Assembly: GCA_015478655.1 (NCBI GenBank)
Contig: JADMIJ010000012.1
Location: 25,947-49,946, forward strand
DNA: 24,000 bases
Reading direction: 5' to 3'
Source: Acidimicrobiales bacterium
GTDB taxonomy: Bacteria; Actinomycetota; Acidimicrobiia; Acidimicrobiales; RAAP-2
The translations under genes were made by a program, and so were the position numbers. Under the pieces are notes generated by a model that worked only from the letters and a program-made list of their open reading frames with translations, searched no databases and was not told the origin of the DNA. Of the stretch, positions 1,902 to 22,215 are shown piece by piece (the stretch's first letter is position 1; the number at the start of each line of letters is the position of its first letter).

Positions 1902-3068
1902 CTAGACCCCCGGGGCCCACGCGGAGCCTGTCGACCAGAGCGCGCGGTTTAGCACGGTGAACCACAGGACCGGGAGGACGATGAAGGCGACCCACAGCCA
2001 CGGCCAGAGGGCCGGGACGAGGGCGAGCACGAGCAGCAGGTAGCTCGTCGCCTCGCCCAGGCCCATGATCCGCACCCGGCGCGGCCGGTCGAACGGGCCG
2101 GGGCGGAGCAGGTGGAGGGCGTAGAACGAGAACACGATGTAGGACGCCCACCCCACCACGATCCCCCACGGCGGTCCGGCCACGGCCCACGCGACGACGC
2201 CGAGCGCGAGGGCCTTGCCCCCGGCGAGCCCGTACGCGAACAGCGAGGCCCGCACGCCGGGGAACAGCCAGTCGGCCGTCAGGCCGGCGCCGCTCTCCGT
2301 CACCGTCACCACGGCGCCCCCCTCCCGGGCCGCCTTGAGGAGCCCCGCGAGGACCGGCACCGGCGGCTCGATCCTCGCGCCGAGGCGGCGGAGGATGTTC
2401 CCCTCGTTCGCCTGGGCCAGCTCCTTCGTCTCGCCCGCGACGGCGATCTGGAACGCCGTCATGGCGAAGGCGTAGACCACGACCGCCCACACGAGCACGC
2501 CTGGGGCCCTGCCCCACGCGAGCGCGGACGCGAGGAAGGCCAGCGCGAAGGCGCCCGAGATCTCGAGGACCGCGAGGGGCTTGTTCCGCTTCCCGAGGAA
2601 GTTGTACGCGTGGCCGAGGAGGATGTACCCGGCGAACGGGGCCAGCGCGACCCAGGCACGGGAGACACCCACCAGCGAGATCATCAGTACGATTCCCGCG
2701 ATTTGTAGTGCCGCGACGAGCGTCCATCCCGAGCGGAGGGAGACCCGGCCGGCCACCACGGGGTGGTCGGCCTTCGCCGGGTCGAGCCGGTCGTACGCGA
2801 TGTCGGTGAGGGAGTTCTCCCCGAACCCCGCGAAGTGGCAGAGCACGCCCAGCAGGGCAAAGACCGGAAGGGTCCACAGCGGCGCCCCGCCGACCCACGC
2901 CGCGAGGGGGAACCCGGCCCCCTCGACGGCGGCGGTCTGGGCGCGGAAGAGGCGGAGCGCGTCCCGCGGGCCGACGGTCACGGCCTCCCCCGCCGTCGCA
3001 GGAGCCCCCGCAGCCCGAGCGGCGTGTGGGGCCGCGTCCCCCGGGGGTGCACCCCGCCGCACACGCAC
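1902..3068 (-). CDS. UbiA-superfamily polyprenyltransferase-like membrane protein
   Basis: The first Asp-rich motif NSLTDIAYD (NxxxDxxxD) at 2790-2816 is followed by HPVVAGRVS. A degenerate second motif GETKELAQANEGNILRRLG is present. The protein is polytopic and hydrophobic throughout. The start is uncertain: GTG at 3068 or GTG at 2981. Confidence 0.7.
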   Translation of the reverse strand: MRVRRGAPPGDAAPHAARAAGAPATAGEAVTVGPRDALRLFRAQTAAVEGAGFPLAAWVGGAPLWTLPVFALLGVLCHFAGFGENSLTDIAYDRLDPAKADHPVVAGRVSLRSGWTLVAALQIAGIVLMISLVGVSRAWVALAPFAGYILLGHAYNFLGKRNKPLAVLEISGAFALAFLASALAWGRAPGVLVWAVVVYAFAMTAFQIAVAGETKELAQANEGNILRRLGARIEPPVPVLAGLLKAAREGGAVVTVTESGAGLTADWLFPGVRASLFAYGLAGGKALALGVVAWAVAGPPWGIVVGWASYIVFSFYALHLLRPGPFDRPRRVRIMGLGEATSYLLLVLALVPALWPWLWVAFIVLPVLWFTVLNRALWSTGSAWAPGV

Positions 3069-3126
3069 AGGAACCCGAGGGGCCCGGCCGTCTCGCGGAG
3101 CTTCGGGAGCCGCACGACGGCGGGCA

Positions 3127-3588
3127 TCAGGCCGGGCCCCCGCCGCCGCCGTCGGCGACCCGCGACACCTCGACCACGACGCCGGGGTCGCCGTAGTCCT
3201 TCGACGCCGTGAGCCGGACGACCTGGGAGTCGTCCATGAACACCACGCCGGAAAGTGCGTCCAAAACCGCTCGTACGAGTTTGTCCACGTCGGGCTTCCG
3301 GTCCGGCCAGATCCTGACCGCCCGCTTCTTCTTCCCCCTCCCCACCGTGGTCGGCCGGCTCCGCGGCTGGGGCAGGCGGAAGGCGAGCGCCACGGAGACC
3401 GGGCCGTCCCACACCGGCGTCGGGGCGTGTGGCTGCGCGGCCGACGCGACCGCGCCGCGCCAGTCGCGGAGCGGCCCCGACGACCGGTTGAAGAGGTGGG
3501 CCCGGCCCCCGGCCATGCCGACCTTCAGCGCGCCCTGCGGAGCGGGAAAACCTCGGACCTCAAAGCGGATCGCGCCGTCGTCGGTCAC
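3127..3588 (-). CDS. rusA: RusA-family Holliday junction resolvase
   Basis: GTG start with GGAG about 9 nt upstream. Carries the diagnostic C-terminal motif RKPDVDKLVRAVLDALSGVVFMDDSQVV. Confidence 0.85.
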   Translation of the reverse strand: MTDDGAIRFEVRGFPAPQGALKVGMAGGRAHLFNRSSGPLRDWRGAVASAAQPHAPTPVWDGPVSVALAFRLPQPRSRPTTVGRGKKKRAVRIWPDRKPDVDKLVRAVLDALSGVVFMDDSQVVRLTASKDYGDPGVVVEVSRVADGGGGGPA

Positions 3589-3606
3589 GCCCTGCGCTCC
3601 GGGTGT

Positions 3607-3624
3607 GAAAGCGGTGTCGCTTTC
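3607..3624. terminator. 7-bp stem-loop in the radical-SAM/RusA spacer
   Basis: gaaagcg-gtgt-cgctttc is a perfect inverted repeat. It lies in the only sizeable gap (3589-3709) of this operon. No U-tract follows, so its function is uncertain. Confidence 0.3.
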
Positions 3625-3709
3625 GGAAACGGTGCTCTAAACCATAAGGACAGCGGACGGGAACCACCGTCTCGGGTAGGACCACCGACCCTGTCCGCTC
3701 GGAAATCGC

Positions 3710-4792
3710 TCACGGCGCCTCGCCGACCGGGTGGCGTTCGAGGTACGCCTCGAACGTGTGGTTCCGGAAACTCGCCGGTCCCCGGTTGACGTACCGGGCG
3801 AAACGGTTCAGCCACGGGTCGTCGGTCCGCATGTTGTCCCGCATGACGAACGGGTGGACCCCGAACTCGCCCCACAGGACGTCGAACCGGAGCCTGACCT
3901 CGTCGTGGCACCGGCCGCACGAGTGCCCCCCGTCCGCATAGCCGCACGGATCGCCCGTCGGGTGCCGCCCGCCCTTGGGCGGGTGCCCCGACAGGATGTA
4001 ACAGGTGATCTCCTTCGGGTCGAACCCGGCCCGCAGAAGGCGGGGGACGGCCCTCCTCACCTGCGGCTCGATCCCGATGTAGTCCCATGCGATGTAGAGT
4101 TTCCGGTTGTCGAACTTCAGACTCCACGGCTTGTGGTCGGCGAGGATGCCGGCGAGCTCCTCGCCGTGGTCCTCCCCCTTCGGAGGACCCGCCAGTATCC
4201 GGGCGTCGTAGCCCTGCGTGATAGAGTACCTCCGTCCGGAGTCGCGGAACCATCCGATGACGTCACGCTGCAGCGCCGGGGGATGCGCGGCGAACTCGTT
4301 GTCGAGGAGGAGCACTTTCGAGAGGCCGGACGGGACCCAGTCCCGCGGATGGCGGAACGGGTACCGGGACATGGCCCCCTCCTTCCGGGACACCAGACAG
4401 AAGTCGCACGCGCGGATACAGCCCCGCTGGCAGAACCCGATCGCGCGGTCGTCGCCGTAGAGGTCGTAGTCCGGCAGGGTCGCGTCGACATCGGCGGGGA
4501 GCGTGGACCACGCCCCGGCGGGCTTTCCCCAGTCGACCCCGCTCCCGCCCAGACGGACGTCCGGGCAGGCCCGGGAGAGACCACGGGCGACCGCCTCCGC
4601 CGTGGGCCGGTTCCACGAGAACACGCACGATACGTAGGCCCGGTCCGGCTTCCCCGCGTCGAGCGGAACCTCCGGCCGGGCCATGCCGCAGGACAGCGCG
4701 ACGGAGTCGCCCCGGACCCTGTGCCATGCGGCGAGCTGCATCAGCGCGAGGTTCGGGATCGTCGAGTCGTGGTCGACTAGCAGGACCCTCAC
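3710..4792 (-). CDS. radical SAM enzyme with an N-terminal Rossmann/B12-binding-like domain (COG1032-like)
   Basis: CIRACDFC (CxxxCxxC) is encoded at 4397-4420. The N-terminus [23 protein letters not shown] resembles class-B/COG1032 radical SAM proteins. The GTG start (4790-4792) overlaps the TGA (4789-4791) of the upstream MTase. The 859-aa ORF in the track is a chimera; only its 3' 1083 nt look like coding sequence. Confidence 0.8.
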
Positions 4793-6702
4793 GGCGCCCC
4801 CGCGAACTCCGTCAGCCGGGCCTGCGCCGGGTGGCTCGCCGTCCGGAGCTGTGCCACGTGCGCGGGCGAGACCACGCCCGCCTCGGCGATCCGTTGTTCG
4901 ATGAGGGGGACGTACGCCGGGTTCAGCTCGATCCCGATGGACCGGCGGCCGAGGCGCTTCGCCACCGCGAGCGTAGTCCCGCTCCCGGCGAACGGGTCCA
5001 AAACCACGCAGGGGACCGTCGGCCGGCACGCGCACCCGGGCCACGACACGTCGGCCTCCACGATCTTGTACGTCTCCTCGACGGCCTTCCCGGCCCCGCC
5101 GTAGGCCTCGACCTCCTCGTCGGTCGCGTCGGCGGCCGCGCCCCCGAGGCCGGACTTCTGGCCGAGGATGCCCTTCTTCGCGTCGCGGACCCGGATGTTC
5201 ATCGTGGAGACGCGCTTCCGGACCGTCCTGTGCGTCCACGACGCCCCGCACTTGTCGCAAGGGTCCTTGCTGCACCCGCAGGTCGGCGTCCAGCCGACGG
5301 TGATCTTCTCGAACATGCCGGCGAGGATGCGGCGCTTGACGTCCGACGCGTTCTCCGCGCCGGTCCCCTCGTAGTCCTTGACCGCCCGCCCCGAGTACTC
5401 GCCGTCGGCGTCGCCGCCCGAGGCGACCTGCCACTCCCGCTGGGGATTGCCGAGCCCGACGACCCGCTCCCACGGCGCGCCGCACTCCGGGCAGGCGCCA
5501 CGCTCGGACGTCCCGGCGAGGAGGCATATCTCGGCGAGGCGCTCGGGGAACACCGCGAAGTGGGCGCCCCTGTACCCCTTCGTCGGGATCGTCCAGACGG
5601 AGCGGAGGTTCCGGCCCGAGCCGGCCTCCAGCGGCAGGTCGGTCGCCTCCCGGAAGCTCGGGTTCTGCTTGACGCCCGACCCGGACCCGGCGTGCTTGCG
5701 CGCCATGTTCTCGAGGGCCCGCCGGGCCGAGCGGCTGGGGTTCGTCCCGCGGGAGTAGTCCTTCGGGCCGCCGGTCTGCTCCCACAGGGACCTCTGCGAC
5801 AGGCGCAGGTGCGTGCCCTCGGACAGGGGCTCCCGCACCGCGTCGGCGTCGTAGAAGTACCTCGGCGACCTCGTCAGGTGGAACACGTACGAGTGGGCAC
5901 GGGTCGTGCGGTCCTTCGTCGACTCCGGCATGGGGTTCTGGTGGTTCCAGATGTTGTCCTGCCGGAGGTACCACCCGTCGCCCTGGAGGGCCAGGGCGAC
6001 GCGGAACGGTATCAGCGCGAGGTCCTTCTCCTTCAGCTCGTCGTTGCGCTTGTCCATCAGCCCGGCCTGCTCGTGCCCGGTCAGGTCCCGGTTGCTCAGC
6101 GTCGAGGCGGCCCACCGCCTCGGCCCGGTCAGGCCGGCCGGGTGGGTCGAGTACGTGTCCCCGATCTCGAGGAAGAACACCCCGTCCTCGCGGAGCACGC
6201 GGCGGACCTCCCGGCACACCGAGACGATGTGCGCCACGTAGAGGGAGGGTGTCGGCTCCAGGCCGAGGGAGCCGAACCACGCGTCGCACCTGGAGCAGAA
6301 CCTCCCGCCGATCGCCTCGTAGTTCCCCGCCGATGGCAGGTTGCCCTCGTCGGCCTCCTTACGGGCACGGCGTGGCGGGGTCGCCACCCACTCGTGGGCG
6401 CATGGGGGGTCACCGCCCCAGAGCACCTCCTGGCCGGGTATCTTCCCCGTCCCCCCGCACCACTGGCAGTCGGGGTCTGGCTCCTTCTTCCGGACGGCCC
6501 CGTCGGCCCTCCTCGGCGGGGGGTGCTCCTCGTCGCCCCGGACGTAGTCCTGCGAGCAGACACAGAGGTCGTACCTCCTCAGTCCCCAGAAGGCCGGACT
6601 CGTCGCGACGCACTGGACCGATCCGCCGGGGAGCTTCCGCAACCAGTCGAGGACGTCGCCCCGCAGGACCAGCGGCTCGGGGCCGGTCGGGAGGTCGGTC
6701 AC
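4789..6702 (-). CDS. DNA methyltransferase, N4-cytosine/N6-adenine family (PF01555-like, beta class) with Cys-rich insertions
   Basis: Motif IV-like TSPAFW occurs near the N-terminus. [38 protein letters not shown] and [10 protein letters not shown] are present, as is motif [30 protein letters not shown] near the C-terminus. Zn-ribbon-like CPECG and CDKCG inserts are present. The GTG start (6700-6702) overlaps the ASCH stop. Confidence 0.85.
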
Positions 6703-7009
6703 CGGACCACCTCGAACCGGACGACGGTCACCTCGAGGAACGGGTCCCACTCCCCGTGAAGGAGCTGCCACTGGTCCATGAAGTCCTCGACGGACCGGCA
6801 CCCCTCCCGGCGGGCGGCGGCGTCGGTGATCCCGTGCAGCGGCTCGCGGCGCACCGAGAGGACCCGGACCTTCGGGTCGCCCGGGCGAACCGGCTGGTCC
6901 TCGTGCGGTAGACGCCGCCGACGCGGACGTGCGGCCGCTTCCAGACCCGGCGGGTCTCGGTCTTCCGCCCCCGGACGATCTTGAGGAGGTTCTGCTGGGT
7001 GAAGATCAC
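6699..7009 (-). pseudogene. ASCH-domain protein whose reading frame is broken once (-1/+2) near 6879-6900
   Basis: The N-terminal half (GTG at 7009) reads [34 protein letters not shown]. The C-terminal half is in another frame: [59 protein letters not shown], ending at TGA 6699-6701. Each frame reads as low-complexity junk beyond the junction. Confidence 0.65.
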
Positions 7010-8346
7010 GGGCAGTCCCCCGTCAGCCGCCGGTGTAGTAGTCGCAGAGCGACTCCAGCTTGGAGAGGCGAGCAAGAGTTGCCGTAAGCTCGGAGCTGGT
7101 CATTTCTCGCGCCTCCGCCCACACGGGGCTCGGAAACCCCATCAGCCACGCTACGAACCGGCTCGACAGTCGCGGGCGCGAGGTCGGGCCACCGGGCGAG
7201 GACCCGCTCCCACTCCTCCCGCTCGCCCGGGCCGGGAGGCCAGAGTGGGATACCTGCTCGTTCAGGGGCCTCGCGTTCCTGCCCATCGTCGCCGCCGACG
7301 CCTCCCCGCTCCGGAAGTCCCGCGCCGCCGGCGTCGCCCACATCTCGATAGCCTGCCCCGTGAGGTGGTCCTTGTCCACCATCCCCCGGTGCTCCCCGTA
7401 GATCGCCCGCGGCGTCCGCCACCGCTCCGCGAACCCGTCGAGGGAAAGACCCTGCCGGCCGTCCGATGCGTGTCGGCGGTACGTCGGCCCCCGGACCGCG
7501 CGCGGGCTCGGCCAGTTCGTCGAGCCCTCGTTCGTGAACTCCGCCGCCCTCGTCAACGTGTCCCCCCGGCGGCGGTCCTCGCTCGGCCCCGCGTGCGCCT
7601 GCTCCGACGCTTGGGGCGTCGGCCACCGCGTCACGGCCTTGGACAGCGCCTCGTGGACGTTCGCCGAGTTCGCCTGCTGGCGCTCCTCCGCCCTCGGCGT
7701 CGGCCAGTTCCTCACCGCCGTATGCAAACTGTAGTCGGTCGTCGACCAGGTCCGGTTGTGGCTCGACTCGCCCGGGCCGTCCGACGCCCTCGGAGTCGGC
7801 CACGCCGTCCCGGCGGCGGGCGAGCGCGAACCATCGTCGCCTGAGGTGGGGCGCTCCGACGTCCGCCGCGGCCAGTACACACCATTCCGTATCGTACCCG
7901 AGTCGGACCAGGTCCCCGAGAACCTCCGCGTGGGCTGATCCGTCAGAGACCGTGAGAAGGCCCGGTACGTTCTCCAAACAGACGTACTCGGGTCGTACCT
8001 CGCCAACGACACGGGCGACCTCGGGCCACAACCACCGTTCGTCCGACGGTCCGGCGCGCTTGCCGGCCGTGGACGACGGCTGGCACGGGAATCCGGCGGT
8101 GACCATGTCGACCCGGCCTCTCCAATCGGCGGCAGGGAAATCTTCGACACGGCCGCAGAAAATAGGAAACGGCTCCAGGGTCTCGTCCTCCATCCTCGCC
8201 AGGAGGACGGCACAGCAGTATGGGTCCCACTCGACTGCACATACCACGCGGGCTCCGGGGAAGGCGATGGCGACGCCTGCGTCGAGTCCGAAGACTCCTG
8301 TGAACAAGCTGAGTATTCTGGGCGCAGAACCGTTGGGATCAGCCAC
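7006..8346 (-). pseudogene. dcm: DNA (cytosine-5) methyltransferase whose conserved motifs are distributed over two reading frames
   Basis: Frame A (stop at 7006) carries FTGVFGLDAG (motif I), GFPCQPSS (IV, Cys at 8083-8085), CLENVPGLL (VI) and APHLRRRWF (VIII). At the 3' end it carries RNDQLRAYGNSCSPLQAGVALRLL (X). Frame B (stop at 7023) carries six W-P/A/R-T/S-P repeats (WPTPRASDG, WPTPRAEE, WPTPQASE, WPSPRAV, WRTPRAI, WATPAARD) and RFVAWLMGFPSPVW. See findings. Confidence 0.7.
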
Positions 8347-8347
8347 A

Positions 8348-8848
8348 CTACCTCGCCCCCCACGGCGGACGGTGGCTGGCCCAGACCGCCGTCACGTCGT
8401 CCCAGAACACCTCGACCTCGCCACTCTCGACGCGCCTCCGCTCGACCTTCTCCACCGCCGCGTACACCATCCCGAGGACCATGTCCCGGGCGTTCAGCTC
8501 GTTGCGGACCCAGTGCTCCATGATCCGGACCCACGGGAAGGGTGCCCGAGCACGTAGACGTGCCCGGCGCTTCTCGGCGTCCTCGATGTGCGCCTTCCAG
8601 AACCCGACCCTAGACTCCGGGCGGCGGTAGTGGATGTCGCAGGCGTGCCAGAAGCATCCGTCCACGGCGACGTACAATGGCCCGCGGATCGTGGGCACCT
8701 CGACGTCGGCGCTCGGCCGGACCCCGGGGTACATCCGGTGCCGGACGTGGCCGCCCTTGAGGATCTCGTGGACCCGTCGCTCGATCCCGTTCTTCCGGAG
8801 CCCCGTGCCGATCTTCGCCATGTGGGCCGACCGCTGCGCCGGGGTCAT
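8348..8848 (-). CDS. vsr: Vsr-type very-short-patch-repair (T:G mismatch) endonuclease
   Basis: VAVDGCFWHAC...FWKAHIEDAEKRR matches the Vsr core as I remember it. TAG at 8348-8350 lies 1 nt before the dcm GTG. I prefer the ATG at 8848. The track start at 8917 would place a perfect hairpin (8866-8885) inside the coding sequence. Confidence 0.75.
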   Translation of the reverse strand: MTPAQRSAHMAKIGTGLRKNGIERRVHEILKGGHVRHRMYPGVRPSADVEVPTIRGPLYVAVDGCFWHACDIHYRRPESRVGFWKAHIEDAEKRRARLRARAPFPWVRIMEHWVRNELNARDMVLGMVYAAVEKVERRRVESGEVEVFWDDVTAVWASHRPPWGAR

Positions 8849-8865
8849 CGTGTCGGTGACATCCT

Positions 8866-8885
8866 CCCCCGTTTGAAAACGGGGG
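8866..8885. repeat. perfect 9-bp-arm GC hairpin (cccccgttt ga aaacggggg)
   Basis: Inverted repeat read directly, followed by ctt. It lies just upstream of the preferred vsr start. Confidence 0.6.
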
Positions 8886-8941
8886 CTTCCTCGGCGCGGG
8901 CCAGACAGTTCTCCCATCGCACCGACCTACATAAGGGGCTT

Positions 8942-8963
8942 CCCGGGGCCCGAAGGCCCCGGG
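8942..8963. repeat. perfect 9-bp all-GC hairpin with a tetraloop (cccggggcc cgaa ggccccggg)
   Basis: Inverted repeat read directly. On minus-strand RNA the loop is UUCG. It is preceded by ggggctt. Confidence 0.6.
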
Positions 8964-9153
8964 TTCGGATGGTGGTTGCCATCCTGGGTGTTCCCGTCTC
9001 CGGCGTTGGGTGTCTGGCCCGCGTCGGGCGGTTCGTGCTTCACCGACCGGGCTCGCCCCTCTCGGGGTGGAGGCCCGATCTCTACGCGCGTGGATTCCCC
9101 GGTGCCCCCGGGTACGGCAGAGGGGAGGGGCGGGGAGTACTTAGGCTCGCTAA

Positions 9154-9683: not shown

Positions 9684-9862
9684 GGCTTCCTCCATGCCGC
9701 GAGCAGCCGCTCGGCGAACAACCGGGTCGCCGACGACCGCGGAAGCTCCTTGCGCGCCCCGGCCGCGAGGTGGAAGAGGTCCTGCCGCATCTCGGCGATC
9801 AGGGCGTCGTGATCCAGGCAGGCGTTGCACCCGTCGCAGTTGACTAGTCCGCACGACGTCAA
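9680..9862 (-). CDS. small Cys-rich protein (60 aa)
   Basis: The TTG start (9860-9862) overlaps the helicase TGA (9859-9861). Peptide: LTSCGLVNCDGCNACLDHDALIAEMRQDLF... Confidence 0.45.
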   Translation of the reverse strand: MTSCGLVNCDGCNACLDHDALIAEMRQDLFHLAAGARKELPRSSATRLFAERLLAAWRKP

Positions 9863-11508
9863 CGCACCCTCCCCACGTCGGCCCGCGCCCGGAACCACCC
9901 GGGCAGCGACGCCCAGTACCGTCGCAGGAGCCGGTCCGCGTTCGCGTCGAGGATGTAGGTCTCCCCGCGGTCGTCCCTCGAGCGCATCACCCGGCCGCAG
10001 GCCTGGAGCATGTCGGTAATCGCCTGCTCCTCGTACCACTGGCGGCCCCCGGGCCGGTCCCGGCGGCGGACCACCCACGGGTCGCCGAGGTTCGGGTACG
10101 GCGCCTTGATCACGACCTGCCACCGCGCCTGGTCCCCGACGAGGTCGAGGCCCTCCGACATCGCCACGCCGACGAAGACCGAGTCCCGCCGCCCGTCGCC
10201 CCTCCACTCCTCGAGGCTCTCGTTCCGGTCGCCGCGGTCGTGGAACACGAGCCGCGCGGAGAGCCCGGCGGGGGCGTGCGCCTCGACGTGCTCCCGCACC
10301 ATGTACGAGTTGCAGTGGATGATCCCGCGCTCCGCCGGGTGCAGGCGGGCGATGCGGGCCAGCTCGGAGACGACCCGCGGCAGCTCCGAGGCCATCCGCT
10401 CCCTGTTGAGGCGGACGGTTCCCGTGAGGCGGACCGGCGCGTTCGCGGGCGGGAACGTGTCCGGGACGGTGACGGTGGCCCACTCCCCCGGGAGGCCGAG
10501 GTACCTCACGAGGCCCGGGATCCCGAAGAAGGTCGCCGAGCCGAGGAGGATGTGGTCGAACTGGTCCCAGACCCTGGCCACGAACGGGCCCACCTCGAGC
10601 GGGCGCCAGAGGTGCCGTTTCATCGCCGCCTCCCATGTGTGGACCCACTCGACGTCGTCCCGGAAGAGGTTCTCCATGAGCCGTTCGCACCGGCGGACCA
10701 ACGCCGCCTGCCGCTTGACCTCCTTCATCTCCGACCCGCTGTGCGGGTCCGCCGCCGCGGTCATGGCCTCGAGCCCTCGGCGCTGTGTCTCAGTGTAGTC
10801 CGGCAGGTGTTCCCGGAGGAAGTCCAGCGGGTCCTCCGCCAGTCCGATCCCGTCGAAGTCGAACTCCGGGAGCGTCCTCTCCCCGACCATCATCGCGTAG
10901 AACTGGACCAGGTCCTCCGGGAGCCCGTGGGCCTCGTCGACGACGAGGAGTGATCGGGGGTCCCATCCGTAGCCCGGGAGGATGCCGATGAACATGTAGG
11001 CCAGGGTAGTGACGGTGGTCCGGGCAATCTGGGCCGCCGCCTTGGCGGTGTAGTAGGGGCACTCCGGGAGCTTGGGACATCCATTGACGCATTGGTCGGT
11101 GCAGCTCCGGGGGTCCTCCTCGGTATGGTCGTGTTTTCCCCTCGGCCAGTACTTGATGAACGTGCAGGGCGCCCCGTCGGCGGTCGCCTCTGGGTCCCCG
11201 CCGGGCAACCCCCGGACGTGCGGGCACGGGTAGTTGTCCCGGCCGTAGAGCGTGCGGGCCCCGAGCCCATCGAACTTCCCGCCGGGCGCGGTGTCCCGTC
11301 CGTACTGGTCGACGAGGAGGGTCTGCGGGGTCGTGACGTAGGTCGGGCCGGTCCCCCGGGCGGCGAGGAGATGGATCAGGCTCTTGCCCGATCCTACGGG
11401 CGCGTCGAGGAAGACGGTCTTCGTGCCCCCGGCGAAGCGGTCGAGGACGCGCCGGATCGTCTCCTCCTGGTTCTCGCGTAGGACGATGTGCGGGGGCGGA
11501 CGGATCAT
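9859..11508 (-). CDS. XPD/Rad3/DinG-like superfamily-2 helicase with a Cys cluster (putative Fe-S domain)
   Basis: Walker A APVGSGKS is at 11380-11394 and DEAH (VVDEAHGLP) at 10927-10938. A Cys cluster lies between them (YPCP, APCTF, SCTDQCVNGCPKLPECPYY; 11059-11226). The ATG at 11508 overlaps the AbrB TGA (ATGA). Confidence 0.8.
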   Translation of the reverse strand: MIRPPPHIVLRENQEETIRRVLDRFAGGTKTVFLDAPVGSGKSLIHLLAARGTGPTYVTTPQTLLVDQYGRDTAPGGKFDGLGARTLYGRDNYPCPHVRGLPGGDPEATADGAPCTFIKYWPRGKHDHTEEDPRSCTDQCVNGCPKLPECPYYTAKAAAQIARTTVTTLAYMFIGILPGYGWDPRSLLVVDEAHGLPEDLVQFYAMMVGERTLPEFDFDGIGLAEDPLDFLREHLPDYTETQRRGLEAMTAAADPHSGSEMKEVKRQAALVRRCERLMENLFRDDVEWVHTWEAAMKRHLWRPLEVGPFVARVWDQFDHILLGSATFFGIPGLVRYLGLPGEWATVTVPDTFPPANAPVRLTGTVRLNRERMASELPRVVSELARIARLHPAERGIIHCNSYMVREHVEAHAPAGLSARLVFHDRGDRNESLEEWRGDGRRDSVFVGVAMSEGLDLVGDQARWQVVIKAPYPNLGDPWVVRRRDRPGGRQWYEEQAITDMLQACGRVMRSRDDRGETYILDANADRLLRRYWASLPGWFRARADVGRVR

Positions 11509-11762
11509 CGCTTCCTCGCCCTCGGTGTGTCCCACCGCGCGCCCCGTACCCCGACTATCCGCAGGACCAGTACGTCGCCCTCTGCGATGCCCAGGGTCTC
11601 CAGCATCAGATGGTCGACGGTAATCTGGCCCCTCTTCCTCAGTTTCGCCGCGAACTCGATCTGCCGCTCGTCGGGGAGCATCTTGAAACTCTGGTGGCCT
11701 GCCATGCGGGACCCCGTAACACTCTCGGATATATTCTGATTTCCTCGCACGGGCTGGGTCAC
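11505..11762 (-). CDS. AbrB/SpoVT/MazE-type DNA-binding protein (85 aa)
   Basis: KLRKRGQITVDHLMLETLGIAEGDVLVLRIV fits the swapped-hairpin AbrB fold signature. The GTG start (11760-11762) overlaps the primase TGA. Confidence 0.6.
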   Translation of the reverse strand: MTQPVRGNQNISESVTGSRMAGHQSFKMLPDERQIEFAAKLRKRGQITVDHLMLETLGIAEGDVLVLRIVGVRGARWDTPRARKR

Positions 11763-14557
11763 TCGCGCCCCCGGAACGGTAGCCGCTCCGGCCAGCCCCC
11801 GGGCCGGTAGTGCTCCCGGCCGTCCTCGCCGACGTACGACTTGCCCAGGCCCATCAAGCGGCCGAAGGCCCCGCTCACCGCCCCGGCCGAGTGGGCGGTG
11901 CGAAGACGGGTGCGTGTCACGTCTCGGTCCCAGACCCCCGGGCCCTGCGCGTCGAGGATCGGGATCAGGTCCGCGTACGCCGCGTCGATTTCCAGGTCCG
12001 GAGGGGCCGCCACCACTCCCCCCTCATCGCTCCGTTCCAGCGCGGCCCTGGCCCCGTCCGCCCGTGTAGCGCGCCCGGCGAAAACGTCCTCCGGGTCCGG
12101 CGTCGTCCGGCCGGCCCGGCCGGGCTCGAGCGCTAGCTTTTCGTTGTTCCTCCCTGATGCTGTTCCCGAGTTTTTCGGGGAGGCGTTTTGACCCGGCCGG
12201 GCCGGCCGGGCTCCGTCAGTGGACCCCCCCGGACCGTCCGGATCGCCGTCGGTCCGTTGACCCCCCCCTTCGGCGTCGAGCCGTTTCTGTCCGTCGCTGG
12301 TCCCGGGACCCTGTAGCCCGGACTGCGACGAACCCCCGTACCGGAACCTCAGCCCCCTCCACGCTTTCTCGCGTCGGCCCTCCACCTGCGGGCGGTGGGG
12401 GCGTATGCCGGGGACGATCCGCACGATCTCCGCCCCGACCTCCTGTTTGGTCATCGCCTCGGGCACTCCGTTGGCCTCGCAGAACTCCGCGTACCGCGCG
12501 TAGAACTCGTCCTTCAGGACCCACTCGTCGGGGTCGCGCACCACCTCCTCCTGGACGAACCACTCGAGGGACGCGGACCGCTTGAGCCAGTCCTCCGTCG
12601 CCCGCCGCACCGTCTCGCCCGGTGCGAACCGGCCCCGTTCCCATAGACGGTGCCGCCCCTCCAGGGCCCAGTTGAGGATCCCCGGGAGGGACTTGCAGAG
12701 GCGGGGAACGAGGAACGAGTCCCGCCGCTCAAGCGGGATGAAGACCGGCCACTCGATCACGAGGACCCGGCGCTTGAACGCCCCGTCGATCCTCTTGACG
12801 GCGGGGAGACGCTGGCCGCTGAACACCAGCTTGGCGCCGTTGACGAACTTGAACGGCTGCTTGTTCTTCTTCTCGGCCCGGACGTAGTCCCCGCCGGTGA
12901 GACTCTTGAGCTTGTCCGTCTTGGTGAGCGTCTGGAGCGGGATGTCGGCCGCGATGTTGGCGAGCTTCCCGTAGAGCTCCGCCACCGAGAACCGGTTCTC
13001 GGAGATCGTCTGCGGCGGCTCGTGGGAGCAGCTCGCGGTGCCTAGGAGTTCCGCGAGTACCGACAGGAACGTCGACTTGCCGTTCGCCCCCTCGCCGACG
13101 TGGAAGAACATCGTCTGCAGCTCGTTCCCCGGCGAGAGGCAGTAGCCGACCATCTCCTGGATGAGCGTGCGGTTCTCCGGCTCCGGCTGGACCTCGGCGA
13201 GCCACGCGAGGAACGGGGCCGGGTCGGCGTCATTGTCGTACGCCACGGGGATGCGGTACGTGAAGCGGTCCTTCTCGGGATCGTGGTCACGGCGTTCCCC
13301 CTTGCCGAGATCGTACACGCCGTTGACCAGGTTCACGAGGCCGGGCCGGTTGAACGTCTCCCGGTGGACGAAGGTGGCCGCCCGCACGGCGTTGACCACC
13401 TCGTTCCGGTGGTTCTTCTTCGCCGAGGCCGACCTGATTTGGAATTGCCGCTCCACCCACGACTCGATGAACGCCTCGGCGAACCCGTTGTAGACCCCCC
13501 TCTCGTACCGGAGGATCTCCCGGGTGTCGGGGAGGGAGCAGAAGTGCTCCTCCTGCAACACCCGCCATACCGCGCCGGCGTGGACCCACGCGCCCTCGGC
13601 GGACCACATCGGAGGGGGCTCGCCGATCAACGGACCGGTGGCGGGGAAGCCCGGCAGGACGTCCGATGGTGGTGTGGTCGGGCTCTCCACCCGCCGATCG
13701 GCCGGCGCTGATGGGCCGGGCGGGGTACCCGCACTTCCTGCCTCGGGTGTGTGAACCGGGTCGGCGCCGGTGTCCGAGCGGGTGGAGTTGGATGGGGGCG
13801 CGGGCCGGCCGAACTTCCCGAGCGCGGACCGGACCGCAGTCTCGATGTCCCTGTCCCGGGACGGCCACCGGTCGTCGTCACTGGCCGCGTACATGGCCGG
13901 CTTGACGATGGCGAGGGCCTGCGCCTCGGTGATCCCCGGAGTGCGGGAGACGACCGAGGCGGCCAACGAGATCAGGTAGTCGTGCCGGCGGCCGTGCGGG
14001 ATCCGGCCGTCGGTGTCGGTCCCGAACTGGCGGGGCGCGGCCGGCGCCGGAGCGGCCCGGAGGAGCCACCCCGGCAGCATCGGCGGTCTCGGCCCGCCGA
14101 CCAGCGGGACGACCCACTCGTACGTGTTCCCCGAGGCGTGCGGGCTCGGCGGGGCCACGACGTACGAGCCGTCGCCCTGGAGGTCGAGCCCCGGCCGGAA
14201 GCCGTGGGCCGGCGGCACGTTCCCGCCGGGGTGCGCGAAGTACCGGTGCTCCCCGCCTCCGCCCGTCTTCGCGACGGGCCCGCGCGGGAGCAGCCCGTGC
14301 TCCTCCAGCAGGGCCTCGAGGCTGTCGTCGCCGCCGTGGCGCGGGTCGACGTCGAGGACCACGAGGCCGGACACCGACCCCATCGGGACGCCGATCCCCG
14401 CGCCCGGATTCTCGGCCCACCACTTGTGGATCGTGTCCGCGTCCCGGGTCGAGTCCTTGAAACCGTGGGGCGTGAGCGGGGTCTTGTCGGCCTTCACGGG
14501 GAACACGGGGAGGCCCGACTTAGCATAGCAGAGTGCGGCCTCGAGGAGGGTGGTCAT
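11759..14557 (-). CDS. bifunctional primase-polymerase (prim-pol) fused to a D5/P4-type SF3 helicase (932 aa)
   Basis: The N-terminus GLPVFPV...LVVLDVDPRHGG...GGGEHRYF...GSYVVAPPS is a prim-pol signature. Walker A VGEGANGKSTF is at 13070-13096, with downstream D5_C-like sequence. The C-terminal roughly 200 aa are a low-complexity linker followed by a small domain. A single frame runs throughout. Confidence 0.85.
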   Translation of the reverse strand: MTTLLEAALCYAKSGLPVFPVKADKTPLTPHGFKDSTRDADTIHKWWAENPGAGIGVPMGSVSGLVVLDVDPRHGGDDSLEALLEEHGLLPRGPVAKTGGGGEHRYFAHPGGNVPPAHGFRPGLDLQGDGSYVVAPPSPHASGNTYEWVVPLVGGPRPPMLPGWLLRAAPAPAAPRQFGTDTDGRIPHGRRHDYLISLAASVVSRTPGITEAQALAIVKPAMYAASDDDRWPSRDRDIETAVRSALGKFGRPAPPSNSTRSDTGADPVHTPEAGSAGTPPGPSAPADRRVESPTTPPSDVLPGFPATGPLIGEPPPMWSAEGAWVHAGAVWRVLQEEHFCSLPDTREILRYERGVYNGFAEAFIESWVERQFQIRSASAKKNHRNEVVNAVRAATFVHRETFNRPGLVNLVNGVYDLGKGERRDHDPEKDRFTYRIPVAYDNDADPAPFLAWLAEVQPEPENRTLIQEMVGYCLSPGNELQTMFFHVGEGANGKSTFLSVLAELLGTASCSHEPPQTISENRFSVAELYGKLANIAADIPLQTLTKTDKLKSLTGGDYVRAEKKNKQPFKFVNGAKLVFSGQRLPAVKRIDGAFKRRVLVIEWPVFIPLERRDSFLVPRLCKSLPGILNWALEGRHRLWERGRFAPGETVRRATEDWLKRSASLEWFVQEEVVRDPDEWVLKDEFYARYAEFCEANGVPEAMTKQEVGAEIVRIVPGIRPHRPQVEGRREKAWRGLRFRYGGSSQSGLQGPGTSDGQKRLDAEGGGQRTDGDPDGPGGSTDGARPARPGQNASPKNSGTASGRNNEKLALEPGRAGRTTPDPEDVFAGRATRADGARAALERSDEGGVVAAPPDLEIDAAYADLIPILDAQGPGVWDRDVTRTRLRTAHSAGAVSGAFGRLMGLGKSYVGEDGREHYRPGGWPERLPFRGRE

Positions 14558-14892
14558 TGGGGGACCCCGGCTTCCTTCTTGGCGGCCGCGCGGTCACGGG
14601 CCCTATAGCGGGCGGTTTCCATCAGACGCTCGGCGAAGAAGTCGAACCGGGCACCAAGCAAGAGCATGAACTCGCGGTACTCGTCCGCACTCATCGTACC
14701 CTTCACGATGTTGCACCGGGAACAGCAGACGGTTCGATTCTCTGGGTTGTCGTCGCCACCGCGGGCACGTGATGTCATGTGGTCCCCCGAGGGGACCCAC
14801 CGCCGATCCTCGCCAGACATGATGTGTCCGCAATAGGGACACGGCTTTCCGACGAACTCGGGGTACTTGCGTACGGTGACGGACGTGCTCAT
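14554..14892 (-). CDS. HNH endonuclease (112 aa)
   Basis: CPYCGHIM...SGDHMTSRARGGDDNPENRTVCCSRCNIVKG is the HNH/Zn-finger signature. Its TGA overlaps the primase ATG (ATGA at 14554-14557). Confidence 0.75.
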   Translation of the reverse strand: MSTSVTVRKYPEFVGKPCPYCGHIMSGEDRRWVPSGDHMTSRARGGDDNPENRTVCCSRCNIVKGTMSADEYREFMLLLGARFDFFAERLMETARYRARDRAAAKKEAGVPQ

Positions 14893-15322
14893 GCGCGCTC
14901 GCAGGGGACGCCGGCGGCGGCCGGGACGCGGCGACCGCACGAGGGGCAGCGGACGTCACTCGTCGAGGGACACACTCATCATCGCCTCTGGTCGGGGGGG
15001 CGACGCCATGAGCGGAGTCCCTAATGAACATGCGGTTCCAGTTTCCATCGGAAACGGTGGGGGGTCGACGGGGATGGCAGGGCGGGCGGTCCCCCGACCT
15101 TCCGGAAGCGAGATCGCTACCGTCCCGCCGTGCCGGGTACGTATATTGGACAGGGGTCTATATAGCTTCCGGAACCATCGCCCCGTCGCAGTGGTCCAGT
15201 CTGTGCGGGGATGATCCCGGCCCGGTCCTCTCCTCCTCCCTCGCCCCCCCGCCCGGACCGGGGGACCCCGTATCACGACCCCCCCGGCCGGGTTGATATA
15301 CACGAACGAGTTTGTCTTGTCC
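14893..15322. promoter_or_regulatory. divergent control region between the replication operon and the plus-strand operon
   Basis: A 430-bp region without convincing coding sequence. It contains the palindrome cttccggaag (15099-15108) and a second ttccggaa (15167-15174). These flank A/T islands gtatatt (15141-15147) and ctatatag (15158-15165). It also contains the hairpin gtttcc-atc-ggaaac (15041-15055), a pyrimidine tract (about 15227-15255) flanked by cccggtcc/ggaccggg, and ttgatatac (15293-15301) about 25 nt before the ATG at 15323. Confidence 0.55.
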
Positions 15323-15485: not shown

Positions 15486-16436
15486 ATGGCGGACCGGGAC
15501 GAGGCGACGGGCCGGCAGAAGCAGTTCCTCCTGGACCTCGGGTGCACGGAGGCACCGGTCGGCCTGACCCGCGCCCAGGCCTCGGCGTGGATATCCGAGC
15601 TCCGCGACCACCAGGCGATCGTGGCGACCGGCGCGAAGGCGACCGCGAGGGCCGACCTCTTCACCGTCCCCCCGGGCGGGTCACCATCACCGTCGCCGGC
15701 GGGCGGACAGGCGGGCGACTCCCCGTCCCGCCCGGGGGGGGGACCGGCCGCGTCCGCTTCTTCTTCCGCGGCCCCGTCGCCCGCCCCGCAACCCGCCGGC
15801 GCCCCCGCGCCGCTCGCCGCGGCCGCCGCGTCCGTCCAGGAGCCGCCCGGGTTCAGGACCGGCACGCAGGTGCTGGCCGAGCGGCAGGCCGAGGCGGAGC
15901 TCGTCGTCCGGTCGCGGGAGTCCTGGGAGCGGGCGGCCGGCCTGACCGCCGAGCAGATCACGATCCTGCGCGACGCGGGGCGCTTCCCGAAGGACGCCCG
16001 GGAGAACGAGATCCGCTTCGGGCTCGCCTTCGCGCACCGGCTCGGTCTCGACGTGTTCTCGGGGCAGGTGAAGTACATCCGGTTCGAGGAGAACGGCCCG
16101 ATGTCGCCGTTCATCGGCATCGATGGGATGGCGGCGCTCGCTAACAAGACGGGGCAGCACGACGGCTGGGAGATGAAGACCGAGGTCGACAAGGAGGGGA
16201 GGCCGGCCCGGTGCACGGTGACGGTGCACCGCAAGGACCAGAAGCACCCCGTGGTCGTCGCGCTCGAGTACGCCGAGGCGGTCAAGTACCGCAAGGACGG
16301 GGCGGTGACCCGGTCGTGGCGGGAGGGCCCGAAGCGGATGCTCGAGAAGGCGACCCGCGCGGCGGCTCTCCGGGCCGCGTTCCCCGAGACGCTGAGCGGG
16401 GTCTTTGAGACGAGCGAGGTCGCCGTTGAGGAGTGA
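15486..16436 (+). CDS. recT: RecT-family single-strand annealing recombinase with an N-terminal extension
   Basis: The C-terminal roughly 170 aa read LGLDVFSGQVKYIRF...PFIGIDGMAALANKTGQHDGWE...RSWREGPKRMLEKATRAAALRAAFPE, which is RecT-like. The N-terminus has a short helical module (QKQFLLDLG...LTRAQASAWISELR) followed by a roughly 90-aa P/A/S/G linker. Confidence 0.75.
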   Translation: MADRDEATGRQKQFLLDLGCTEAPVGLTRAQASAWISELRDHQAIVATGAKATARADLFTVPPGGSPSPSPAGGQAGDSPSRPGGGPAASASSSAAPSPAPQPAGAPAPLAAAAASVQEPPGFRTGTQVLAERQAEAELVVRSRESWERAAGLTAEQITILRDAGRFPKDARENEIRFGLAFAHRLGLDVFSGQVKYIRFEENGPMSPFIGIDGMAALANKTGQHDGWEMKTEVDKEGRPARCTVTVHRKDQKHPVVVALEYAEAVKYRKDGAVTRSWREGPKRMLEKATRAAALRAAFPETLSGVFETSEVAVEE

Positions 16437-20212: not shown

Positions 20213-20565
20213 TGTGCGACCGGTGCAGGTCCGAGAGGCCGTGCGGCCGGTGCGCCTGCCGGAGGACGATCCGCCCGAAGGACTCGAGCGCGCGGAGGCT
20301 CGGCTATGGGATCTGTGTGACCTGCGGCCACTACGTCAGCCGGCGACCGCCTTCCAGAGGCGGTTCGACCGCCACAGTATCCGGAGCGGACGGAGACCGC
20401 GGGCCCGCAGGTGGCGCAGCGCCTCCCGCCGCATCGCGTAGGGCGAGAACCGGCCGGGCGGCAGACGTATCTCGACCAGGGCGTCCATCGTGGCCCGGAC
20501 CTCGTCGGTCGTCATCCCGAGCAGGACCTGCTTCCAACGGTAGCGCAGGCGCATCTCGCGGATGA
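20212..20565 (+). CDS. possible small Zn-ribbon protein with an uncertain 3' end
   Basis: ATG at 20212 shares one nt with the previous TGA. The N-terminus MCDRCRSERPCGRCACRRTIRPKDSSARRLGYGICVTCGHY is plausible. Past about 20336 the frame is antisense to the GGR-like gene and reads as low complexity. Confidence 0.3.
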   Translation: MCDRCRSERPCGRCACRRTIRPKDSSARRLGYGICVTCGHYVSRRPPSRGGSTATVSGADGDRGPAGGAAPPAASRRARTGRAADVSRPGRPSWPGPRRSSSRAGPASNGSAGASRG

Positions 20566-21568
20566 ACGGGGCCAGCCCGCGCTCGTAACCGTCCGGGTCG
20601 TCGGCGGCGACGGCCAAGGCCGCCGCGACGCCGGACGCGAGTGCCTGGTGGATCCCGCCGCCGGTCAGGGGGTCGCACATGCGCCCCGCGTCGCCGAGGG
20701 ACAGGACGCGGCCCCGGTGGAGCTTCCGGTCCGGCCGGTAGGTCGGGATGACGCCGCCCATGCGGTGGTGCGCCGGCAGGTGGAACTCCGGGAAGTCCCG
20801 GAGGAAGCCGTCGAAGTACTTCCGCACCGGGACCGGGACGCCCCGCGCGTCGCGGACCGACAGCGGCGTGCCGATCCCGACGCGCAGGTGCGCGACCCCG
20901 TCCTCGGAGCTGGGGAACACCCACGCGTACCCGCTCGGCGCCCAGTCGCCCAGGTAGAGCGTCACCCGGTCGGGCGGGTGCTGCCCCGTGTTGGGCACGG
21001 AGACCTCGAGGCCGTTGTGCCGGTCCTCGTCGGGCAGGGCGCGCGTGATCCCGAGCCGACGCGAGATCCGGGAGTCGTAGCCGCCCGCGTCGAGGACCCA
21101 CGAGGCGGTGACGGCATGGCGACCGTGGGTCTCCCGCAGGTCGACCTCGTAGACGTCCCCCTTCCGCCGGGCGTCCTCCGCGTGGGTCGCGTGCCAGAAC
21201 GCGACGCCGGCGCGGGCCGCCTCGGCCTCAATCCTGCCGAGAAAGTTCGCCTCCTGCAGGACGACCCCGAGTTCCGGCGCGAGGGGGTTCCCGGCGCTCA
21301 GGACGCGCTCCGTGCCGGGCGGGTCGCCGGAGACGACGAGGCGGAACGACCGGATCGGTGAGGAGACGGCGTCGGGGGTGGGTGGGAAGCCGAGCTGCTC
21401 CAACCAGTACGACGCGATCCCGCTCGTGCTAGACGGTGGGTACCCACTACGCCCCCGGCGGTCGACCACCAGGACCCGCGAGCCGCGCCCCGCGCGGGCG
21501 AGCGACACGGCGGCGGCCTGGCCGGCGTAGCCTGCCCCGACCACCACCACGTCGTAGTCGGGCCTCAG
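20336..21568 (-). CDS. FAD-dependent geranylgeranyl-reductase-family oxidoreductase
   Basis: DYDVVVVGAGYAGQAAAVSLARAG is a dinucleotide-binding motif (GAGYAG at 21521-21541). LGDAGRMCDPLTGGGIHQALASG is the GGR-type second FAD motif. The start is uncertain: CTG at 21568 overlapping the upstream TGA, or GTG at 21550. The upstream 100 aa of the 509-aa track ORF look non-coding. Confidence 0.75.
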   Translation of the reverse strand: MRPDYDVVVVGAGYAGQAAAVSLARAGRGSRVLVVDRRGRSGYPPSSTSGIASYWLEQLGFPPTPDAVSSPIRSFRLVVSGDPPGTERVLSAGNPLAPELGVVLQEANFLGRIEAEAARAGVAFWHATHAEDARRKGDVYEVDLRETHGRHAVTASWVLDAGGYDSRISRRLGITRALPDEDRHNGLEVSVPNTGQHPPDRVTLYLGDWAPSGYAWVFPSSEDGVAHLRVGIGTPLSVRDARGVPVPVRKYFDGFLRDFPEFHLPAHHRMGGVIPTYRPDRKLHRGRVLSLGDAGRMCDPLTGGGIHQALASGVAAALAVAADDPDGYERGLAPFIREMRLRYRWKQVLLGMTTDEVRATMDALVEIRLPPGRFSPYAMRREALRHLRARGLRPLRILWRSNRLWKAVAG

Positions 21569-22171: not shown

Positions 22172-22215
22172 CGCCAACCATAGGCTTATTCCCCCAAATG
22201 TAATTGACCGTTCCG
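22172..22215. promoter_or_regulatory. 44-bp divergent intergenic spacer with two A/T boxes
   Basis: cttatt (22185-22190) is centred about 28 nt before the plus-strand ATG at 22216. aaatgtaatt (22196-22205) is centred about 29 nt before the minus-strand ATG at 22171. There is no Shine-Dalgarno sequence on either side. Confidence 0.4.

Follow-up and report, generated by a model that had tools for sequence, protein, structure and literature searches.

We analysed a window of 24,000 bp from the metagenome-assembled genome (MAG) of an Acidimicrobiales bacterium (GenBank assembly GCA_015478655.1, contig JADMIJ010000012.1, positions 25,947 to 49,946), in which a compact block of minus-strand genes (3710-8848) places a radical S-adenosylmethionine (SAM) protein beside DNA methyltransferases (MTases). 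In the order of transcription, the block comprises genes for a Vsr-type very-short-patch mismatch endonuclease (8348-8848), a C5-cytosine MTase (7006-8346), an ASCH-domain protein (6699-7009), a beta-class N4/N6 amino-MTase of the PF01555 family (4789-6702) and the radical SAM protein (3710-4792). A preliminary description of the locus, made from the sequence alone, had read these as a chain of five genes. The junctions are exactly as it gave them: TAGTGTG at 8344-8350, where the Vsr stop codon (TAG, 8348-8350) lies 1 nt ahead of the start of the next gene, and GTGA overlaps at 7006-7009, 6699-6702 and 4789-4792. The identification of the Vsr, PF01555 and radical SAM genes also stands, but the ASCH gene carries a 1-nt frameshift and the presumed dcm gene is spread over two reading frames. 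The five genes therefore probably amount to six open reading frames (ORFs), and of these ASCH is broken. Four-nucleotide overlaps join other genes of the same operon as well (14554-14557 and 11759-11762), so the tight coupling on which the earlier reasoning drew extends through the operon and does not single out these five genes.

The radical SAM protein (360 aa) matches the family phrog_9298 (E = 9.6e-32), its residues 1-269 aligning with positions 1-230 of the 305 in the profile. The start at 4792 agrees with the N-termini of homologues and with a 360-aa NCBI record from an Acidimicrobiales MAG, a hypothetical protein of identical sequence. Direct translation places the CxxxCxxC motif for the [4Fe-4S] cluster and SAM at 4397-4420 (CIRACDFC), as first described, and its cysteines C125, C129 and C132 are the only invariant ones in 115 sequences. 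The conserved blocks of the family are 'DxDSxIPNLALMK', 'RGCxRxCxFCxV..KEG', 'LLDN', 'TQGYDxR' and 'WDY', and the window protein retains all family-invariant residues. Searches of Pfam and NCBIfam at E ≤ 0.01 returned no match for the window protein. Among 30 relatives, 25 match PF04055 (best E = 1.7e-6, all under the gathering score) and 10 match PF02310 (best E = 1.1e-7). The AlphaFold2 (AF2) model of the window protein (predicted local distance difference test, pLDDT, 92.4; predicted template-modelling score, pTM, 0.90) consists of a Rossmann-type N-terminal domain (approximately residues 1-100) followed by a beta/alpha radical SAM core. The B12-binding-like N-terminal domain of the preliminary description is supported at the level of the family and by the Rossmann fold of the model, but not by a Pfam match of the window protein itself. 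Foldseek recovered lysine 2,3-aminomutase and HydE from the PDB with a probability of 1.0 and a TM-score of only ~0.35. Sequence-profile matches to the PDB were to MiaB/RimO (7mjv, 4jc0; E = 2e-3 to 7e-3) around the cluster motif only, and the best viral model in BFVD was an MtaB-like methylthiotransferase that matched over two domains (TMq 0.56). Profile and structure searches place the protein in no characterised family and yield remote fold matches only. PADLOC gave no defence-system match for the radical SAM protein, the ASCH protein or the flanking unknowns.

Several known kinds of radical SAM enzyme were considered and rejected for this protein. MiaB, RimO and MtaB provide the top profile matches in the PDB and the top two-domain match in BFVD, but they carry a three-cysteine auxiliary cluster in the N-terminal domain and a C-terminal TRAM domain. 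The window protein has no TRAM domain and no conserved cysteines outside CxxxCxxC, and so is not a methylthiotransferase. It matches no QueE model in NCBIfam or Pfam and has no QueC, QueD or FolE beside it; viperin is absent from the PDB profile matches, the top 50 Foldseek matches in the PDB and the PADLOC models. The earlier statement that the protein resembles neither QueE nor viperin is borne out by Pfam, NCBIfam, PDB profiles and Foldseek alike. A fold of the type of spore photoproduct lyase (SPL) and phage M6 gp53 was likewise not found among the top PDB matches. The class B radical SAM methylases and COG1032-type proteins share with phrog_9298 the order of a Rossmann or B12-binding-like N-terminal domain followed by CxxxCxxC, and we take the 'IPNLALMK' loop of the family to resemble the 'PPLGLAYLAA' start of class B B12-binding domains. 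Unlike class B methylases, which have 450-650 residues, phrog_9298 proteins have ~300-360, and no solved class B structure is among the best fold matches. In relation to class B cobalamin enzymes the window protein can be called only 'B12-domain-like', with cobalamin binding putative.

The family is large and mostly viral in its settings. A set of 5.8 billion proteins contains 177 homologues, all unnamed, and among 1.84 billion cluster representatives a profile search matched 671, 1968 and 3642 at E ≤ 1e-30, 1e-10 and 1e-3. Members occur in 308 IMG/VR loci, 410 metagenome stretches, 11 plasmids and 14 GenBank phages, the last including phages of Bacteroides and Phocaeicola, Clostridium tetani phage phiCT453B, an Oscillospiraceae phage, a Marinitoga virus and a Methanomassiliicoccales virus. 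The GenBank phage homologues are also annotated as 'radical SAM domain protein', and in annotated phages the gene lies in the early/replication region, a few genes ahead of the terminase. In one member (P0252; locus L300, 684-2036) a single ORF of 450 aa joins the radical SAM protein to a Dam-type N6-adenine MTase domain (PF05869, E = 4e-30). Three others (P0335, P0336 and P0343) have N-terminal extensions of 75-95 aa, which in P0335 and P0343 show a sub-threshold Pfam likeness to winged-helix DNA-binding families only, and in P0336 none. A longer N-terminal domain of ~355 aa, without a Pfam match, is present in P0360 and P0366. In P0240, P0241, P0303 and the plasmid hit H36, an intein (Hint plus LAGLIDADG) interrupts the CxxxCxxC site.

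The preliminary description had asked whether homologues of the radical SAM protein co-occur with MTase genes. We analysed 63 non-redundant IMG/VR loci, with ORFs defined by a crude greedy longest-ORF rule; many of the metagenome loci are short, and related sequences are not independent. In Pfam scans of the two genes on either side, PF01555 and PF00145 head the upstream list (6 and 5 of n = 118) and number 3 and 1 downstream. A position-resolved search with hidden Markov models (HMMs) located 35 MTases: nine directly upstream of the radical SAM gene (position -1), three at +1, and at most two at any other position. MTases are therefore enriched at -1 (9/61 versus 26/1719 elsewhere; odds ratio 11.3, p = 1.3e-6), and remain so when the comparison is restricted to positions within ±10 (odds ratio 8.3, p = 1.7e-5). 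Several of the MTase/radical SAM pairs share 4-nt stop/start overlaps. Four of the MTases at -1 are C5 enzymes and five belong to PF01555; MT-A70 enzymes lie nearby in L005 and L089. Neither MTase family occurs within 10 kb in 37 of the 63 viral loci (~59%). In a neighbour-joining tree the MTase-adjacent genes are scattered, but they make up seven of the 14 leaves surrounding the window. Among the closest relatives with enough upstream DNA (at least 39% identity), 9 of 14 have an MTase within ~2.5 kb upstream (L005, L007, L088, L090, L219, L224, L226, L228 and L229). The linkage between radical SAM and MTase genes is real and strongest in the clade of the window, and it is not obligatory.

Other neighbours recur as well. 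The absence of DpdA noted in the preliminary description holds within the window, where no DpdA-like ORF was found, but not for close relatives. DpdA (PF23859) lies directly downstream of the radical SAM gene in L088 (7038-7823) and L228 (1912-2655, 326 nt downstream), and L090 has the order radical SAM, PAPS_reduct, DpdA (7181-8742). DpdA often has a gene of the PAPS-reductase family as its partner, and such genes are also nearby in L230, a Trichlorobacter plasmid and phage BKO1-TP3. No DpdA, PAPS-reductase, NADAR or WDGH gene was detected in the 63 viral loci, a weak negative with HMMs built from one or two sequences. ASCH, C5-MTase and radical SAM genes occur together in the window, L088, L025 and L219, and the downstream neighbours of the family include Tad3 and Lar. 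In L088, NADAR and WDGH genes lie between the MTase and the radical SAM gene.

A further feature of the block is the organization of its C5-MTase. The called gene (frame A, 'alpha-like', 446 aa, 7006-8346) matches PF00145 with E = 1.2e-33 over residues 10-181 only. An ORF in the +1 frame (frame B, 'beta-like', 7023-8348) spans the same DNA and matches phrog_1008, 'DNA methyltransferase' (E = 7.9e-27). Frame A encodes the N-terminal motifs I-VIII, then a low-complexity stretch of ~230 aa without sequence constraint, and then a C-terminus of the form 'WPPGP..W..VLARWPDLAPA..ADG..DQLRAYGNSxSPLQA' with motif X (DQLRAYGNSCSPLQA). Frame B starts with 'MWLIPT..' and continues with WPTP-repeat target-recognition units, motif IX (RPRLSSRFVAWLMGFPSPVW) and a helical tail. 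All C5-MTase motifs are thus encoded in the DNA but spread over two frames, and no single frame carries the whole set. In the middle of the gene the G+C content at third codon positions (GC3) is 0.93 for frame B versus 0.66 for frame A, and over 7200-7800 it is 0.92-0.98 for frame B. Frame B has 228 database homologues, nearly all without PF00145, and several full-length ones begin with 'MWLYVP', 'MWLLPS' or 'MWWFLP'. A tblastn search of the frame B product against phages gave no match.

The same layout is widespread. The catalytic domain of L005, L092, L093 and L094 is read in the -1 frame with respect to the ORF as called. L092 and L093 have both frames open throughout, the two starts being separated by 2-4 nt. 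A survey with a degenerate DNA pattern for motif IX returned 120 genome loci, of which 101 have an upstream C5 catalytic domain. The domain is in the -1 frame at 77 of these 101 loci, mainly in Rhodobacterales isolates and including complete genomes, and in the same frame at the other 24 (Streptomyces and relatives). Both arrangements are also found among curated actinophages: Gordonia phage Lton has a single ORF (gp60), and Kingsley (gp70/71) and Eesa (gp39/40) have two coding sequences, the second in the +1 frame. In Mycobacterium phage Kingsley (L216, 1500-1600), LLPTPRATDGTKGGPNQRGSAGDLMLPSAV is encoded in a third frame without coding annotation, and gp71 as annotated carries other LLPTP units in its own frame. 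Past recombination between MTases may have left units that resemble the target-recognition domain (TRD) in several frames.

Codon-phase variability was followed along alignments without gaps, comprising 17, 16 and 14 genes of Rhodobacterales (~87% identical). Variability peaks at the third position of frame A over nucleotides 0-520 (motifs I-VIII), at that of frame B over ~540-900 (TRD repeats) and ~990-1100 (motif IX), and returns to frame A at ~900-990 ('PPGP..W..VL..PDLAPA') and in motif X. In the pair formed by the window and L005, the selected frame likewise changes from A to B near 7810-7800. We also shuffled the selected frame synonymously and counted stops in the other frame. The middle of the gene has no stops versus 9.7 expected in L092 (P < 0.0005) and 5.4 expected in L093 (P = 0.0015); in the window, the N-terminal part has none versus 3.4 expected (P = 0.0065), and the middle in frame A has none versus 2.45 expected. 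Sequencing errors or a pseudogene were rejected as the source of the frame breaks, since L005, L092-L094 and 77 of the genome loci show the same organization, with frame-specific selection.

In C5-MTases, motifs I-VIII and X form a large domain, and the TRD and motif IX form a small domain. A large-domain chain with a disordered linker and a separate small-domain chain would therefore be structurally sensible. The AF2 model of the frame B product has a mean pLDDT of 58, with 86-94 in the C-terminal 50 residues and low values in the rest; it neither proves nor disproves a separate small-domain chain. A precedent exists in M.EcoHK31I: the gene for its alpha chain (motifs I-VIII, X and TRD) also encodes, in another frame, the beta chain with motif IX, and activity requires both chains (PMC2836561). 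The position of motif IX in an alternative frame within the gene for motifs I-VIII and X is the same. Unlike in M.EcoHK31I, where the TRD is in alpha, the +1 ORF of the window spans the whole gene (~1.3 kb) and carries the WPTP target-recognition repeats. Because both frames are open from end to end and M.EcoHK31I provides a precedent, two overlapping ORFs encoding putatively two chains are more likely than programmed frameshifting; in the less likely alternative, two or four programmed ribosomal frameshifts would yield one C5-MTase chain. The two-frame C5-MTase thus appears to be a new and much larger relative of the M.EcoHK31I arrangement. Gene finders systematically mis-call it, and the 228 'hypothetical proteins' in the databases represent its +1 frame. 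In L094 a DpdA gene (1943-3477) adjoins the two-frame C5-MTase, with no radical SAM gene.

The Vsr gene upstream matches PF03852 (E = 1.2e-7; 31.9 bits, above the cut-off of 27) and TIGR00632 (E = 8.6e-11; 42 bits, below the cut-off of 97.85). Its ORF is open up to an ATG at 8917, but GC3 support stops near 8850, and a start at the ATG at 8848 is more likely. The preliminary description called Dcm plus Vsr a textbook pair. As in E. coli dcm-vsr, the Vsr gene abuts a C5-cytosine MTase gene; the order is reversed, however, with vsr upstream, and the MTase is a phage-type, two-frame enzyme and not a simple dcm. The ASCH gene has 311 nt, which is not a multiple of three. In a tblastn comparison with the intact ASCH gene of L088 (389-709), residues 1-44 and 49-105 match in different frames, at 75% and 70% identity, which locates a 1-nt deletion near 6876-6878, at '...GCG|GAC...'. 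An intact ASCH domain is not encoded in one frame, and PF04266 is matched (E = 1e-5) only once the frame is repaired. The break may be either an inactivating mutation that made the gene a pseudogene or an error of sequence or assembly. The amino-MTase (637 aa) matches PF01555 (E = 2e-32), the PADLOC model MTase_II (1.5e-77) and phrog_67 (2.5e-47), and it aligns with the MTases upstream of radical SAM genes in L012, L030, L035, L076 and L079. Motif I is present; motif IV reads TSPAF, as compared with TSPPY or TSPSY in homologues and an expected (D/S)PP(Y/F/W). The protein bears several cysteine-rich, zinc-ribbon-like insertions, and its homologue in L012 contains a LAGLIDADG-type insertion. The genes of this MTase and of the radical SAM protein are intact, with GC3 values of 0.86-1.00.

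To our knowledge, SPL and phage M6 gp53 are the only radical SAM enzymes that act on DNA, and gp53 is the only one that installs a DNA modification. Gp53 of Pseudomonas phage M6 is an SPL-like isomerase of post-replicative thymidine hypermodification (PMC8989533). It is comparable as a phage-encoded radical SAM enzyme within a DNA-modification gene cluster, and it demonstrates such chemistry on phage DNA. It differs in that it needs a pathway of 5-hydroxymethyldeoxyuridine (5-hmdU) kinase and aGPT-Pplase, none of whose genes is near the window gene, and in that phrog_9298 has a B12-binding-like N-terminal domain and MTase neighbours. A conceptual analogue of methylation followed by elaboration is offered by phage modules of a C5-MTase with a TET/5mYOX oxidase (PMC8256090), in which the gene of a second enzyme is likewise linked to a cytosine MTase. 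TET, however, is a dioxygenase that depends on O2 and 2-oxoglutarate and is consistently partnered by a C5-MTase, whereas the MTase partners of phrog_9298 differ in chemistry and are absent from most loci. The radical SAM/DUF483 module of Thermus phages (PMC11437467) was set aside as a different module. A phage radical SAM gene in a DNA-modification island is thus already known in kind, and phrog_9298, with the family membership, architecture, viral distribution, positional MTase link and domain fusions observed here, is a good candidate for a new DNA-modifying enzyme.

We propose that the block is an island for DNA modification and anti-restriction, and that it occupies the distal end of a prophage-like element's early operon. 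Four of its members would be conventional in kind: Vsr, an M.EcoHK31I-like C5-MTase, a frameshifted ASCH protein and a beta-class N4/N6 MTase. The fifth would be a self-sufficient, DNA-directed radical SAM enzyme of a large virus-borne family, with a single [4Fe-4S]/SAM site and an N-terminal Rossmann domain like those that bind cobalamin. It would add or alter a modification with the 5'-deoxyadenosyl radical, perhaps through C-methylation assisted by cobalamin. It would provide an extra, oxygen-independent layer of protection beside ordinary methylation, and would not process the mark of a neighbouring MTase. The MTases, the Dam fusion and the DpdA, PAPS-reductase and ASCH neighbours place the radical SAM protein among DNA-modifying functions. 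The mixed chemistry at position -1 (four C5, five PF01555) and in the Dam fusion suggests a generic DNA context and not dependence on one mark, and as the MTase partners differ chemically and most members have none, the enzyme probably carries out a reaction of its own. We infer the DNA substrate and the type of chemistry, and favour an autonomous DNA-directed enzyme tentatively, as somewhat short of an even bet. Several points weigh against it. The window protein itself matches neither PF04055 nor PF02310 at E ≤ 1 and contains no recognisable DNA-binding domain, and the closest structures are those of enzymes acting on small molecules or tRNA. The Dam fusion is known from one 2.2-kb contig only, and the winged-helix fusions could serve autoregulation. 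The MTase counts come from home-made HMMs for two families only (PF01555 and PF00145), an adjacent MTase is missing from some 80-85% of viral loci, and where the genes do adjoin, a shared 'accessory gene slot' of phage genomes could be part of the reason. A bolder version, in which phrog_9298 enzymes are oxygen-independent hypermodifiers that employ a 5'-deoxyadenosyl radical, perhaps with cobalamin, to write an undescribed carbon-linked mark into phage DNA after replication, the MTase-coupled clade acting on or beside methylated bases, seems rather improbable.

A serious rival gives the protein an accessory or anti-defence role in the phage, with a substrate other than DNA: a small molecule, host RNA such as tRNA, or the pool of nucleotides or SAM. 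Its proximity to MTases would then arise from the gathering of counter-defence genes in one region of phage genomes. The protein stands alone at most loci without a constant partner, its nearest structures are small-molecule or tRNA enzymes, counter-defence genes are among its neighbours (NADAR in L088, Tad3, Lar), and its presence in viruses of very different hosts would suit a universal substrate. However, the MTases are concentrated at -1 with stop/start overlaps (9/35, as compared with an expected ~5% for an even spread over ±10), and the fusions to Dam and to winged-helix-like domains, the lack of a three-cysteine auxiliary cluster or TRAM and the lack of a PADLOC or NCBIfam match also count against a non-DNA role, which we consider possible but doubtful. 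The preliminary description proposed instead that the enzyme elaborates or rewrites a base set by the adjacent MTases, with Vsr repairing deamination damage. The base would be 5-methylcytosine, N4-methylcytosine or N6-methyladenine, and the enzyme would act on its methyl group. It could, for example, abstract a hydrogen from the 5-methyl group so that this carbon is then methylated, thiolated or hydroxylated, which would make it the anaerobic equivalent of TET/5mYOX. This is consistent with the GTGA overlap of MTase stop and radical SAM start, a tight order repeated in L035, L076, L061 and phage NatCom_21982, with the upstream MTase in 9 of 14 members of the clade, and with the joint recurrence of ASCH, C5-MTase and radical SAM genes in the window, L088, L025 and L219. 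Many hosts are anaerobes, in which an O2-dependent TET could not work, and MTase plus oxidase is a precedent (PMC8256090). Yet the partner MTases are heterogeneous (C5, beta-class N4/N6, Dam) while the active-site residues of the radical SAM protein are highly conserved, some 80-85% of viral loci are without an adjacent MTase and ~59% have neither family within 10 kb, and in the window the C5-MTase is two genes and the frameshifted ASCH one gene away. The proposal is unlikely as a general account and survives mainly for the clade of the window.

The DpdA genes of relatives point to another role, in which the radical SAM protein makes or tailors a non-canonical base that a DpdA-type transglycosylase exchanges into DNA, as a non-orthologous stand-in for QueE or RaSEA within a pathway of the 7-deazapurine type. 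QueE, QueC and DpdA form the established pathway of 7-deazaguanine DNA modification, in which a radical SAM enzyme and a DNA transglycosylase likewise meet in phage anti-restriction clusters. Their combination is mirrored by the trio of the radical SAM protein, a protein of the PP-loop ATPase superfamily and DpdA, and DpdA is downstream in three relatives, L088, L090 and L228. The window copy would then be a remnant relying on enzymes encoded elsewhere. The family is, however, mostly free of DpdA, which is missing from the window and, with an HMM from two sequences, from the 63 viral loci; QueC, QueD and FolE are absent as homologues or neighbours, and no QueE or RaSEA model in NCBIfam or Pfam is matched. 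Such a role is possible for a few loci and very unlikely for the family. Least probable, by a little, is a decaying prophage remnant with a non-functional module and the radical SAM gene as a passenger. The 1-nt deletion in ASCH, SPAF instead of (S/D)PP(Y/F) in MTase motif IV and the origin of the sequence from a MAG would fit decay, but the C5-MTase layout is kept at 77 of 101 genome loci, complete genomes included, and in curated phages, with both frames open and selection following the frame. The radical SAM and PF01555 MTase genes are intact, with high GC3, and the former retains the family-invariant residues. Whether restriction, CRISPR and other defences succeed against a phage is decided by the modifications of its DNA, and a large family tied non-randomly to DNA MTase genes is a target in the search for new oxygen-free DNA chemistry. 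Its hundreds of clusters are found in viruses of Bacteroides, Clostridia, relatives of methanogens and soil Actinobacteria. If the hypermodifier version were true, the family would constitute an anaerobic counterpart of the phage TET/5mYOX systems, spread over phages of bacteria and archaea from gut, sediment and soil.

The block is embedded in one long minus-strand operon running from ~15.3 kb down to 0.5 kb, as delineated by codon-position G+C and Pfam (G+C of the window, ~70%). Upstream are genes for an HNH protein (14554-14940), a PrimPol-D5 helicase (11759-14557) and a Helicase_C_2 protein (9859-11535), all on the minus strand and identified with Pfam. They are followed by small unknown ORFs, Vsr, C5-MTase, ASCH, PF01555 MTase, radical SAM, RusA and a UbiA-like gene. 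A RecT gene (15486-16436, Pfam) is divergently transcribed. The RusA Holliday-junction resolvase downstream of the block (3127-3588, minus strand; PF05866, E = 4.3e-19) marks it as part of a phage replication-recombination operon, and the region as a whole serves early replication and recombination in a prophage-like element. No integrase and no tRNA were seen in the window, and a megablast search of 3500-9000 against phages gave no match. The only sizeable gap within the block is the 121-nt spacer after the radical SAM stop codon (3589-3709). It contains an 8-bp hairpin with a U-rich tail (3649-3671, minus strand), a possible end point for a transcription sub-unit; the spacer folds no better than its shuffles (z-score -0.72), and terminator-like sites occur at chance count.

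Next to RusA, a gene for a UbiA-family prenyltransferase-like membrane protein (1902-3068, minus strand; PF01040, E = 1.9e-10) is an unusual cargo in a phage-like operon, and the related element L005 likewise has a UbiA gene (1089-2090). At the right end of the window, a geranylgeranyl-reductase-like FAD oxidoreductase (20336-21865, minus strand) and a 588-aa protein of unknown type (22204-23970, plus strand) both look host-like, which suggests that the boundary of the element may lie near 19-20 kb.

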